Position numbers and translations under genes: made by a program. Positions 55,636 through 60,616 of a stretch of 64,000 nt of DNA are shown piece by piece; positions within the stretch are counted from its first letter, which is position 1, and every line of letters starts with the position of its first letter. Origin of the DNA: Candidatus Aminicenantales bacterium (lineage in GTDB: Bacteria > Acidobacteriota > Aminicenantia > Aminicenantales > UBA4085); the NCBI GenBank assembly GCA_049515535.1, contig JBEKTZ010000001.1, forward strand, positions 144,599 through 208,598. Reading direction: 5' to 3'. Under the pieces are notes generated by a model. That model had not been told where the DNA came from. It did not search any database and worked only from the letters and a program-made list of their open reading frames with translations.

Positions 55636-57264
<1,629 letters not shown>

Positions 57265-57361
57265 ATTGAAATAGGTAACATGATAGCGAGACGCACCTCC
57301 CTGACGGGTAATGCTGTGATAGATTACTCGTTGGAGAAAAACTTCAAAAGGAGGTGCGCGG

Positions 57362-58396
57362 ATGTATTTTATCGGTGTGGACCATCATAAGCAAGCGTCG
57401 GTCATGACGGTCTTGGACGAGGATGGTCGAGAGTTGAAGAACGGGCGAGTGTTCAATCTGAGGGAGAAGGTCGAGCGATTCTTGGAAGGGTATCATCCGT
57501 TTACGGCCGTTCTCGAGGCTGGGCGATCGTCGTACGTGATGGCGGACCTGCTTCGGGAGCTGGGCGGCGAGGTGAAGATCGCGAATGCGCTTCAAGTGAA
57601 GGCGATTGCCCATGCCCGGATCAAGACCGACAAACGAGACTCGCGGACATTGGCCTACCTCTTGCGGGCGGATCTGATTCCGGAGATTTATCAGCGAGGA
57701 GCGGGGAACCGGCGGGCGCAACGGGTGATGCGGATGAGGACCTATTGGGTCCGCAAGCAAACGGAAGTGAAGAACAAGATCCGGGCGCTTTTGGCTCAAC
57801 AGGACGAGGAGGTCCGGGTGGAGGTTGGGAAACGGGAGGAGGGCCTGTTCAGTTTGAAAGGGCTGGAGTTCCTGACCAAGCTTCCCCTGGAGGATCCGGA
57901 CAAGATGGTCTTGGACGACCTGATCCAGGGCTATCGGGAAGTTCAGGCTCATCTCAAGAAGACAGACGGAATCGTCCGCAATCTGTATGGGGAGATCGAG
58001 GAGGCGGCGCGAATCGACAGTGTGCCGGGCTTTGCCGCGACGTTGTCGGTGTTGGTTGCGGTCGAGATCGCGGACGTCAAGCGATTTACGAGGGCGGCGG
58101 ATCTTCATTCCTATGCCGGGGTGATTCCCTCGACCTACTCATCGGGAGAACGGACGTATCACGGCCATATCACGAAACAAGGGAACGGTTGGCTGAGGTG
58201 GGCGGCTTTGGAAGCAGTTTACCCGGCGATCAAAAAAGACCTCGGGCTGCGGACCTTATACAACCGCTTGGCGCGAAGCAAAGGAGCGAATGTGGCGAAA
58301 ATCGCGGTGGCTCGGCGATTGCTGACGATCATTTATCGCGTGCTCACCGAGAAGAGGGATTATCTTCCCGACCAGATGAAACCATCGGCTGCCTAG
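57362..58396 (+). CDS. IS110-family recombinase/transposase (DEDD)
   Basis: IGVDHHK, LEAG, KTDKRD (D-E-D-D); GVIPSTYSSG serine loop; GHITKQGNGWLRW; AKIAVARRL. Confidence 0.96.
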   Translation: MYFIGVDHHKQASVMTVLDEDGRELKNGRVFNLREKVERFLEGYHPFTAVLEAGRSSYVMADLLRELGGEVKIANALQVKAIAHARIKTDKRDSRTLAYLLRADLIPEIYQRGAGNRRAQRVMRMRTYWVRKQTEVKNKIRALLAQQDEEVRVEVGKREEGLFSLKGLEFLTKLPLEDPDKMVLDDLIQGYREVQAHLKKTDGIVRNLYGEIEEAARIDSVPGFAATLSVLVAVEIADVKRFTRAADLHSYAGVIPSTYSSGERTYHGHITKQGNGWLRWAALEAVYPAIKKDLGLRTLYNRLARSKGANVAKIAVARRLLTIIYRVLTEKRDYLPDQMKPSAA

Positions 58397-58510
58397 AATT
58401 CCCCTTAACGGGCCCGGGAGGGTCGCGTTCAGAAATAGGTTTAGGAGCCGAGATCGAATGTTATGGTGCGCATAAAGGCGCGGATAGAAGGGTGGTTCAA
58501 GAAACCGAGG
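58392..58510 (+). ncRNA. Predicted bridge/seek RNA of the IS1111-type element
   Basis: Two stem-bounded internal loops whose strands match the reconstructed target (ATTCCCCT and GAAATAGG) and the donor junction (ATGTTA and ATAGAAGG). Ends are approximate. Confidence 0.8.
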
Positions 58511-58660
58511 CAGTCATTAAGAAAGATGGAAAGAAAAGAAATGTGTCCGAGGACTTGCGTTTCGCTATCATAGAAGGGGTAATAGGTATTGTGTCTCCAT
58601 ATTTCGATTCCGCGTAATTGTTTGACTTATCAACCGGATATCTGATATAAAATAGCCCAA

Positions 58661-58732
58661 GGGCCTATAGCTCAGCGGTAGAGCTCCCGGCTCATAACCG
58701 GTCGGTCCCAGGTTCGAATCCTGGTAGGCCCA
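58661..58732 (+). tRNA. tRNA with CAT anticodon, most likely tRNA-Ile2 (lysidine); CCA not encoded
   Basis: GGGCCTA/TAGGCCC acceptor stem, CCGG-CTCATAA-CCGG anticodon arm, GGTTCGAATCC T arm. Ile2 over Met is inferred from sequence style and position after rpoD. Promoter TTGACT-18-TATAAA upstream. Confidence 0.93.
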
Positions 58733-58752
58733 TTTGACCAAGAGGAAATGAT

Positions 58753-59526
58753 GTGGAAATCGCATTTGACAAACTGATCAGGTTGCAGCATGTCGACACC
58801 GAAATAAATACGATTTCCTCTATTCTCGACGCCATACCCTCCCAGCTCGATGGGATCGATCAGCAGACCAAATCCACGGTCGAAATCATCGCCCAGGCGA
58901 AGGATAAGCTCGCCGCCAACCAGAAAAAACGAAGGGAAATGGAAGGCGAGGTCAAAGAGATCAAGACTTATATCGCCAAGTTCAAGCGCCAGCTCAACGA
59001 CGTCAAATCGAACAAGGAATACACGGCGCTTCTCAAGGAAATCGCGGAAGCCGAACACAAAACCGACAAGATCGAGGAGGACATCCTCAACGAGATGATC
59101 GGCGCCGACGACGTCGAAAAGGAAATCAAGACGGCCAACGTCAAGAAAGCCGAGGAAGAGAAACGGCTCCAAAAGGAAAAAGAGGCCATCCTCGGGAAGG
59201 AAAAGGAACTCGACGCGCAAAAGGCGGTCCTCGCCAAAGAGCGCCAGGACCTGCTCCCTCAAATCCCCCCCGATCAGCTCAGACTTTATCTCCGTATCGT
59301 ATCGAAATTGAACGGCATCGCCCTGTCAGCCGTCACCGACGATTTCTGCTCGCTCTGCCAGCTGCGCGTCCGGCCCCAGCTCGTGAACGAATTGATCGAG
59401 ATGAAAAAGATCATCATGTGCGAGGCGTGCGGGAGGATCTTGTATTGGCACAAGCCCAAGGACGAGAATATCCCCGAGGAAAAACTCGACAACCCCGATA
59501 AAGCGGACGATTCCAGCGCGGGCTAA
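58753..59526 (+). CDS. Coiled-coil protein with C4 zinc ribbon (DUF164/CT398-like)
   Basis: LIRLQ.VD, long coiled coil, SNKEY.AL.KEI, CSLC...CEACGRILY. Confidence 0.9.
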   Translation: MEIAFDKLIRLQHVDTEINTISSILDAIPSQLDGIDQQTKSTVEIIAQAKDKLAANQKKRREMEGEVKEIKTYIAKFKRQLNDVKSNKEYTALLKEIAEAEHKTDKIEEDILNEMIGADDVEKEIKTANVKKAEEEKRLQKEKEAILGKEKELDAQKAVLAKERQDLLPQIPPDQLRLYLRIVSKLNGIALSAVTDDFCSLCQLRVRPQLVNELIEMKKIIMCEACGRILYWHKPKDENIPEEKLDNPDKADDSSAG

Positions 59527-59676: not shown

Positions 59677-59838
59677 CTAAAGATCAAGAGCGAATCTGAT
59701 CGCTTCATCGATCAGGTTGAGTTTCTCCGGATCGAGTGACGCGATTCTCGAGACGAGAAGTTCTTTCCTGATGGTAGCGAGCGTATCGAGGTTAGCGACG
59801 CACTTTTTGGGCAGTCCGTCCTCGGGGCCGAGAGGGAC
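59677..59838 (-). pseudogene. mazF: C-terminal fragment of a MazF/PemK toxin
   Basis: VPLGPEDGLPKKCVANLDTLATIRKELL...LIDEAIRFALDL with no start codon and no N-terminal RP motif region. Confidence 0.8.
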
Positions 59839-60089
59839 TAGCCGGAAAAGGAATCGACCGAAGCCTTCTCCCAGGCTTCGCTGTGTCCGGGAGTCTCGGG
59901 CATCCTCTGATAGCCTTCCACGTAGATGCGGGCGTTCTTTTCCTTTCTTTTCGTCTCTTTCCATAGACGCATAGCCTCGAGGATAAACCCGCTCCGGCTT
60001 AGTCCCCTTTTCTTACGGATGGACTCAAGATCCTGGAATTCTCTGGCGGGGAGACTGATCGTGAATTTCGTAGAATGATTCATGGCCAT
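59838..60089 (-). CDS. Ribbon-helix-helix (CopG/MazE-type) antitoxin
   Basis: KFTISLP...GLSRSGFILEA...YVEGYQRMPE; lies directly upstream of the toxin fragment. Confidence 0.8.
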   Translation of the reverse strand: MAMNHSTKFTISLPAREFQDLESIRKKRGLSRSGFILEAMRLWKETKRKEKNARIYVEGYQRMPETPGHSEAWEKASVDSFSG

Positions 60090-60501: not shown

Positions 60502-60616
60502 CCTTCTATGATGGCGAAACGCAAGCCCCTTTTTCTTTCTTTTATTCTTCACCGCTGCCTCGGTCTTTTGAACCACCCTTCTATCCGCGCCTAGAAGCGC
60601 ACCGTAGCATTCGGCT
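60502..60616 (-). mobile_element. Orphan right end of a sibling IS1111-type element (donor loop, IR and core)
   Basis: Minus strand CGAATGCTACGGTGCGC...GGCGCGGATAGAAGGGTGGTTCAA...CCGAGGCAG...CTTGCGTTTCGCCATCATAGAAGG is colinear with 58455-58577. Confidence 0.88.

Follow-up and report, generated by a model that had tools for sequence, protein, structure and literature searches.

A probable bispecific guide RNA behind the recombinase gene of an IS1111-type insertion sequence from an uncultured Aminicenantales bacterium

A bridge RNA or seekRNA, i.e. an RNA that tells a recombinase where to insert its element, was described in 2024 (PMC11208160, PMC11187229). The question raised by the locus analyzed here is whether the non-coding region behind a recombinase gene of an uncultured bacterium specifies such a guide and, if so, whether that guide reads the element's own insertion site and ends. 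The locus is contained in a stretch of 64,000 nucleotides (the window) of Candidatus Aminicenantales bacterium (NCBI GenBank assembly GCA_049515535.1, contig JBEKTZ010000001.1, positions 144,599 to 208,598 of the forward strand), and all positions are counted from the first letter of that window. We conclude, with a probability of roughly nine in ten, that positions 57275-58576 represent an IS1111-group insertion sequence (IS) of the IS110 family with a gene for a DEDD/serine recombinase and, immediately after it, one for a bispecific guide RNA. The element and its borders consist of the following parts:

57275..58576, plus strand: insertion sequence of 1302 bp, the right-hand AG being counted as the element's; ends placed by comparison with 16 related copies and with other copies in the same genome
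57362..58396, plus strand: recombinase (transposase) gene, 344 amino acids, intact, with D7, E52, D90, D93 and S261-G262
57266..57272, plus strand: left target half TTGAAAT, of which GAAAT plus AG(G) recurs in the RNA at 58432-58439
57273..57274, plus strand: left copy of the core AG, the sole duplication in relatives for which empty sites were found
57275..57281, plus strand: right donor half GTAACAT at the left end, complementary to 58458-58464 with one U-G position
57280..57295, plus strand: left subterminal inverted repeat, 16 bp with one mismatch, of which 10 bp (57280-57289) are perfect
58556..58571, plus strand: right subterminal inverted repeat, partner of the left one
58568..58576, plus strand: left donor half (CATAGA..) followed by the right copy of the core AG (58575-58576)
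58577..58583, plus strand: right target half GGGTAAT, read from the sequence and compared with relatives

Behind the stop codon of an rpoD-like gene the window reads ATTGAAAT-AG-GTAACATGATAGCGA, and about 1.3 kilobases further on TCGCTATCATAGA-AG-GGGTAAT. Written with the AGG of the initial annotation, the left junction, from 57266 onward, is TTGAAAT-AGG/TAACATGAT and the right junction, with 58583 as its last base, is ATCATAGA-AGG/GGTAAT. The inverted repeat (57280-57289 with 58562-58571, 10 bp, perfect) starts five bases inside each end; the non-coding ends measure 87 nucleotides on the left (57275-57361) and 180 on the right (58397-58576), the longer one lying downstream of the gene; and no target sequence is duplicated except the AG that is present on both sides, as is usual in the IS110 family. 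Subterminal inverted repeats of 7-17 bp and a long downstream non-coding end are the features that set IS1111 apart from the IS110 group (PMC11208160, PMC11187229), and judged by its anatomy the element would thus be placed in the former.

The protein is in line with that placement. It combines the N-terminal DEDD/RuvC-like domain PF01548 (E = 2.7e-16) with the C-terminal Transposase_20 domain PF02371 (E = 9.5e-17), and it matches the NCBIfam model NF033542, 'IS110 family RNA-guided transposase', with 192.1 bits against a cut-off of 140 over amino acids 3-332 of 344. IS1111 transposases are described as having 330-350 amino acids and a GL-P----S(t)G motif (PMC11187229), and the protein encoded here shows G253-V-I-P-S-T-Y-S-S261-G262. 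Its only matches among solved structures are the bridge recombinases of ISCro4 and IS621. The best one, ISCro4 (PDB 9t56; E = 2.4e-10), is distant and covers two short stretches, yet D7, E52, D90, D93 and S261-G262 align to identical ISCro4 residues when mapped by motif rather than by structure; the corresponding catalytic residues of IS621 are D11, E60, D102, D105 and S241 (PMC11208158). The nearest transposases in a plasmid collection are at most 40% identical and are all labelled just 'IS110 family transposase', so that the branch that carries the element appears to be an undescribed one. Together with the covariation treated below, the domains, the NF033542 score and the IS1111 anatomy bear out the earlier proposal of an RNA-guided IS110/IS1111 recombinase. 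That the system would be intact and programmable, as was also proposed, is suggested by the open reading frame (ORF), the conserved ends and the natural diversity of the guides.

The non-coding region that follows the recombinase gene can be dissected as follows:

58387..58515, plus strand: bridge/seek RNA region of about 130 nucleotides, with an outer stem formed by 58387-58394 and 58508-58515; shares the last codons and the stop with the recombinase gene
58392..58396, plus strand: CCUAG, 5' arm of the closing stem of the target loop; includes the TAG stop, is invariant and pairs with 58441-58445 in 98.5% of cells of the RNA alignment
58397..58406, plus strand: right target guide AAUUCCCCUU, the complement of core and right flank as read on the top strand; covaries with the right flanks of relatives
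58407..58429, plus strand: hairpin AACGGGCCC-GGGA-GGGTC-G-CGTT that caps the target loop; has the only compensatory pair
58431..58439, plus strand: left target guide AGAAAUAGG, identical in letters to the left flank plus core
58441..58445, plus strand: UUAGG, 3' arm of the closing stem of the target loop; conserved pairing
58458..58464, plus strand: right donor guide AUGUUAU, the complement of GTAACAT at the start of the element
58467..58482, plus strand: hairpin UGCGC-AUAAAG-GCGCG that caps the donor loop; 100% paired, invariant
58483..58491, plus strand: left donor guide GAUAGAAGG, equal to the terminal bases of the element followed by base 1 of its left end

Two loops expose four segments that match the two flanks (left and right) and the two ends (left and right) of the element itself. 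The motifs that had been quoted for these loops were all recovered at their positions: in loop 1 CCTAGA (58392-58397), ATTCCCCT (58398-58405), GAAATAGG (58432-58439) and TTTAGG (58440-58445), and in loop 2 ATGTTA (58458-58463), a GCGC/GCGC hairpin (58468-58481) and ATAGAAGG (58484-58491). The structured region was found where it had been placed, at 58392-58510, but its limits are a little wider and include the outer stem. Within the target loop the complement of the top strand (58397-58406) precedes the segment that is identical to it (58431-58439); in the published IS1111 seekRNA order a top-strand match likewise lies 5' of a bottom-strand match (PMC11187229). The left target guide fits its flank at nine of nine positions including AGG, the left donor guide likewise fits at nine of nine, and the right target guide of this copy fits the core plus five of seven further bases.

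Could short words in an ordinary 3' untranslated region simply resemble the borders of the element by chance? The segments are indeed only 6-9 bases long each and one of the four is imperfect. Nevertheless, on the plus strand of the window the left-flank word GAAATAGG occurs twice, namely at 57268 and 58432, and the right-end word ATAGAAGG also twice, namely at 58484 and 58570, i.e. each only at its junction or end and in its loop (ATGTTA occurs five times), and none of 200,000 shuffles of 58385-58520 held the three exact words together. With none of 100,000 permutations reaching the observed agreement between guides and flanks (see below), chance is refuted as an explanation and we give it practically no weight.

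The covariation of guides and flanks among homologues had been named in advance as decisive for the guide RNA. A scan of public genomes yielded 31 loci, 16 of which (L006-L021) encode a relative at 65-85% identity, and all but one of these 16 come from metagenome-assembled genomes of Aminicenantes. The set analyzed comprises the 17 insertions of which both ends were readable: the window copy, a second full copy in the same genome (split over contigs C16 and C24, which share an exact overlap of 127 nucleotides) and 15 of L006-L021. Left out were L007 (its contig ends inside the RNA, and its guides are the same as those of L006), two remnants without a left end, and the loci L022-L036, which are at most 45% identical or partial and in which the RNA could not be aligned. 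In the case of the most distant ones (L022-L031, 28-39% protein identity), which do not enter any count, a match of the left donor guide was seen by eye in both that were inspected (L023 and L027).

Together the 17 insertions carry 12 distinct guide pairs, which were scored against the flanks over six variable bases on the left and seven on the right. Guides match their own flanks at a mean of 4.5 of 6 and 5.5 of 7 positions, against 1.7 and 2.5 for the 187 cross pairings; when each variant is represented by a single insertion, 114 of 156 positions match in total, whereas permuted pairings give a mean of 57.6 (standard deviation 7.7) and never reach 114 in 100,000 permutations. The guides thus covary with the flanks across 12 variants, as had been predicted. 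The same is visible within the genome itself, in which the left guide is the same in the two full copies, each of which follows (G/C)AAAT-AG, while their right guides differ (AUUCCCCU in the window copy, GUCUUCCU in the C16+C24 copy) and the right flank of the latter, AGGAAGAG, differs to match. In an alignment of the 13 distinct RNA regions the stems are near-invariant and the variable columns are those of the proposed guide segments and the hairpin loops.

These comparisons also bear on the idea that the four matches act as DNA, i.e. as protein-binding sites or as an internal copy of the ends that serves end recognition, without any guide RNA being made. Such a view could draw on the lack of expression data for the region, on the conservation of the stems by sequence instead of by compensation, and on the invariance of both the left donor segment and the right end. 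It is nevertheless very improbable: the target-loop segments copy host DNA that varies from site to site, which a fixed protein-binding site cannot do, the placement of sense and antisense segments around a hairpin is the published arrangement of the RNA, and in four IS1111 members the equivalent region was shown to be an RNA, active in trans and co-purifying with the transposase (PMC11187229).

The insertion point could be settled with empty sites, since the complete genomes of two relatives hold uninterrupted paralogues of the target. The target CATCAAGGGCAAGT (CATCA-AG-GGCAAGT) has one perfect and seven one-mismatch sites, against one for the reversed control, and several of these empty sites share the wider context of the occupied ones. 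The target TCCATGAGTGTCGA (TCCATG-AG-TGTCGA) has 12 perfect and 10 one-mismatch sites, against none for the control, all within one repeated element that resembles repetitive extragenic palindromic (REP) sequences and of which the occupied members read ..TCCATGAG/GTAACAT...ATAGAAG/TGTCGA... In this second set only AG is common to the target and the element, and the core is therefore AG and not AGG. The initial annotation had given an AGG core; the G that follows is the first base of the element, and while the letters of the reconstructed empty site and circle junction remain as proposed, the core within them shrinks to two bases.

The REP-like repeat is present in at least 22 copies, as counted with a 14-mer, in the chromosome of one relative (L065-L076; L010, L013-L015). 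It is hit by two guide variants at two different positions, the second variant (L010) being from the same genome. At another locus (L011) the insertion site lies in a long palindrome, with GGTGACACTAAACTTAATTC and, a few dozen bases further, its reverse complement, which suggests the targeting of a hairpin-forming repeat. The copy in the window, on the other hand, occupies a unique intergenic site and not a repeat.

In the donor loop the comparison with relatives is of unequal value on the two sides. The left donor guide and the right end that it matches are both invariant, and their comparison is uninformative. The first bases of the element are GTAACAT or GTAGCAT across relatives, and the right donor guide matches them at seven of seven positions in three of the 12 variants and at six of seven in six, among them this copy by means of the U-G position. 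The A or G that distinguishes TAACAT from TAGCAT is tracked by U or C in the right donor guide in eight of 12 variants, by a wobble in one, and not in the other three. In IS621 the core is said to join all four pairings (PMC11208160, PMC11208158), whereas here only three guides, namely both target guides and the left donor guide, contain the core or its complement. The core-free right donor guide may be a real departure from the IS621 model, or else the long inverted repeats may share in the recognition of the ends. Handshake guides of the IS621 kind were also looked for: in the right target guide a U stands after the core complement, and this U could form a pair with a donor A in nine of 12 variants, but it could also pair with the target in several, so that no consistent rule emerged and the candidate was dropped.

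By analogy with IS621 (Durrant et al., Hiraizumi et al.) and with ISEc11, ISPa11 and ISKpn4 (Siddiquee et al.), the parts can be assembled into a mechanism. The element would excise as a circle, the joined ends of which (..ATAGA-AG-GTAACAT..) would be held by the donor loop, while a target like ..GAAAT-AG-GGGAAT.. would be held by the target loop; the RNA would thus present two loops, each capped by a conserved hairpin and the second reading the element's own joined ends, and two recombinase dimers would exchange strands at the shared AG. Probably the RNA and the recombinase gene share one transcript, which starts at a junction promoter or is due to read-through from rpoD and is trimmed afterwards. 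The stop codon lies inside the conserved CCUAG, and the RNA therefore overlaps the end of the gene and is probably cut from a longer transcript; processing from a longer transcript has also been proposed for ISEc11 (PMC11187229). That the region is made as RNA and bound by the protein, that the circle forms and that the copy is still active would follow from the published biochemistry of the family. Two further features are relevant to expression:

58555..58560, plus strand: TTGCGT, a possible -35 box, 17 bp from TAACAT (57276-57281) when the two ends meet in a circle; invariant in all 13 aligned copies
57292..57358, plus strand: leader hairpin in which CGCACCUCC pairs with GGAGGUGCG, the ribosome-binding site of the transposase; -31.9 kcal/mol, z = -3.6

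With regard to the former, we only infer by analogy with PMC11187229 that TTGCGT/TAACAT could act as a weak junction promoter, the parts of which are also constrained as end sequences. In the case of the leader hairpin both arms are kept in relatives, an inner-stem C-G being replaced by A-U in L011, and it probably prevents the translation of transcripts that read through from rpoD. In the integrated state such read-through, the element being co-directional with rpoD and 10 bases behind it, could supply the RNA while the ribosome-binding site is locked in the hairpin.

A number of observations weigh against the proposed guide RNA or against details of it. With respect to the pairing with DNA, the right target guide of this copy had been called a near reverse complement of its flank, and near is all that it is: its reverse complement AGGGGAAT agrees with AGGGGTAAT at five of seven positions after AG, or with a one-base indel or bulge. 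On the left, L016 and L021 fit at one of six positions unless a one-base indel is allowed; and the right donor guide has two mismatches in three of 12 variants (i.e. matches at five of seven positions) and continues with UGG, CGG, CAG or CAC instead of CU, i.e. without the core complement, unlike IS621. With respect to the fold, the two-internal-loop structure (outer stem 58387-58391/58511-58515, CCUAG/UUAGG for the target loop, AGCC..AUC with GGU-GGUU for the donor loop, and a hairpin cap in each) is paired in 96.0% of 403 cells, but only one of its 31 pairs is compensatory (C-G to U-A, in five of 13 sequences) and 15 never vary; RNAalifold prefers a partly different fold, with an extended outer stem and the target guides as single strands of a three-way junction; and the fold of the single sequence is not unusually stable (z = -0.75). 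The guide segments are well supported, the exact fold is not. With respect to expression, no RNA sequencing run was listed as holding the stretch, a scan of the linear element gave no promoter-like site inside it and one terminator-like site on the wrong strand, and the putative junction promoter agrees with the consensus at only seven of 12 positions. A search of 57200-58800 with cmscan against Rfam (E up to 1) returned only the transfer RNA (tRNA) and two tRNA look-alikes, Rfam 15 not being established to hold any bridge RNA family.

The remaining objections concern the site itself, for which the neighbours are needed:

55636..57264, plus strand: rpoD-like sigma-70 gene, an ORF with its stop codon 10 bases upstream of the element
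58661..58732, plus strand: tRNA-Met (CAT), downstream neighbour of the element

An empty rpoD-tRNA locus, which the initial annotation had named as a check, did not turn up: the exact site of the same species was not found in 40 related genomes, which all belong to other genera, and the 12 spacers that were read are too diverged to show GAAATAGGGGTAAT. Of the 19 loci compared (L038-L056), 17 have tRNA-Met behind rpoD and no 1.3-kilobase insertion; in L038 and L041 no tRNA match was obtained. Finally, in the contigs of four DNA runs, one of which contains the element exactly and may be that of the source sample, no contig on 57150-58750 joins the flanks or the ends. Two apparent joints in these contigs (57207 to 58679 and 57329 to 58577) were rejected, as they have short sides (30 and 22 letters) with unknown or foreign letters between them; we read them as other organisms or as a chance repeat of GGGTAAT.

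Some of these points would suit another explanation, according to which the family has a real guide RNA gene but this particular copy is stranded, having been inserted off-target or having drifted since, so that its RNA misfits the right flank and the element does not excise. In its favour, the right guide is imperfect, ISEc11 is reported to need a correct target on both sides to form circles (PMC11187229), and the sample that holds the element gave no contig with the circle junction. Moreover, the genome contains only two full copies and two truncated remnants, and it offers no perfect vacant target, with no site within one mismatch of the reconstructed 16-nucleotide empty site and, for two guide-derived 13-mers, no perfect and 7-8 one-mismatch sites. 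Against this, the reading frame, the catalytic motifs, the ends, the inverted repeats and the conserved stems of the RNA are all intact, circles that are rare would be invisible to contigs, and relatives sit at sites with one or two mismatches as well, so that an imperfect fit between guide and site appears to be normal for the family. We consider a stranded copy unlikely, although it is the most serious of the alternatives.

How does the element compare with known systems? According to Durrant et al. (PMC11208160) a bridge RNA is predicted in the right end of 93% of the catalogued IS1111 elements. The closest likeness is to the IS1111 seekRNA elements ISEc11, ISPa11, ISKpn4 and ISPst6 (PMC11187229), with which it shares a DEDD transposase of 330-350 amino acids with G-x-x-P-x4-S-G, subterminal inverted repeats, a long downstream non-coding region, the absence of duplication beyond the core, and a pair of short segments, overlapping at the insertion point and arranged in the same order; like them, some of the relatives found here target repeated REP-like sequences. 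It differs from them in its host, an uncultured Aminicenantes-type lineage, and in the location of this copy at a unique intergenic site instead of a repeat. With IS621 (PMC11208160, PMC11208158) it has in common a two-loop bispecific RNA with left and right guides for target and donor, left guides that read the bottom strand and right guides that read the top strand, a protein of the same family with D-E-D-D and Ser motifs, and a core of two bases, albeit AG here and CT in IS621. In contrast to IS621 as described in these sources, the RNA is encoded downstream of the gene and not in the left end, each loop has its guides in the opposite order, the element has long inverted repeats, its right donor guide lacks the core complement and handshake guides are not identifiable. 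ISPpu9 of Pseudomonas putida, with its Ssr9 RNA (PMC12288879), likewise belongs to the IS110 family and carries its RNA gene behind the transposase, and it has extra RNA gene copies without transposase elsewhere in the genome, the counterparts here being a fragment on contig C10 and positions 60502-60613 of the window, although these look like truncated remnants. For ISCro4 (PDB 9t56) the comparison covers the proteins alone, which have the same two domains and aligned catalytic motifs.

The known mechanism of such elements is unchanged by these findings, and the locus is a clear but ordinary example of it. What it contributes is a well-documented bridge/seek RNA of the IS1111 type from an uncultured lineage of sediment and peat. 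With it comes a natural data set of 12 guide pairs, including insertion sites and empty sites, from which one can see how much divergence between guide and target is tolerated in nature. The AG core and a donor loop that does not read the core could be of use for the mining and engineering of bridge recombinases.

Of the two truncated remnants in the genome, the one within the window is located as follows:

60502..60613, minus strand: truncated remnant of a related copy, 112 bp, with only the donor-loop half of the RNA and the right end; C16/C24 subtype

Its right flank, AG/GAAGGCG, resembles the right guide of the C16/C24 subtype at five of seven positions. The other one, on contig C10 (L004, 1501-1763), measures 263 bp and comprises the last 77 bases of the transposase gene, the complete guide RNA region and the right end; it lies between two unrelated genes, has no transposase, and carries a guide pair of its own (GUUAACCCCU / AAAUUUAGG), the right guide of which fits its flank at only four of seven positions. 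Taken together, one could imagine the Aminicenantes clade as a natural reprogramming series with rules other than those of IS621 and with solo RNA genes that retarget in trans, a combination that we regard as unlikely. As to its parts, the 12 guide pairs on an almost invariant scaffold, with two variants in one genome at two positions of the same repeat, may represent such a series; an AG core and a right donor guide that ignores it, the long inverted repeats perhaps recognizing the ends in its place, may be among such rules; and the resident recombinase might be redirected by solo RNA genes of truncated copies, that on C10 having a guide pair of its own. The left guides, moreover, carry one extra G that matches the first base of the donor even where the target has T (four of the 17 insertions), which is possibly a bottom-strand counterpart of the handshake pairing.

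Three minor observations concern the surroundings and the distant relatives. Ahead of the tRNA-Met, at 58614-58650 of the window, TTGACT and TATAAA are separated by an 18-base spacer, and a TTGAC...GATATAAA pattern is retained in the rpoD-tRNA spacers of relatives; this is likely the tRNA promoter, left intact by the insertion. Near the remnant in the window two small overlapping ORFs of 95 and 83 amino acids are found on the minus strand (59677-60089), the second of which starts in a way that we take to be like a ribbon-helix-helix antitoxin, and the two may form a toxin-antitoxin pair beside the IS remnant. In a relative with 38% protein identity (L025, approximately 2640-2760) the right end is tandemly duplicated, with two copies of about 46 bp that end in ..GCGTTTTCAGGGATA.

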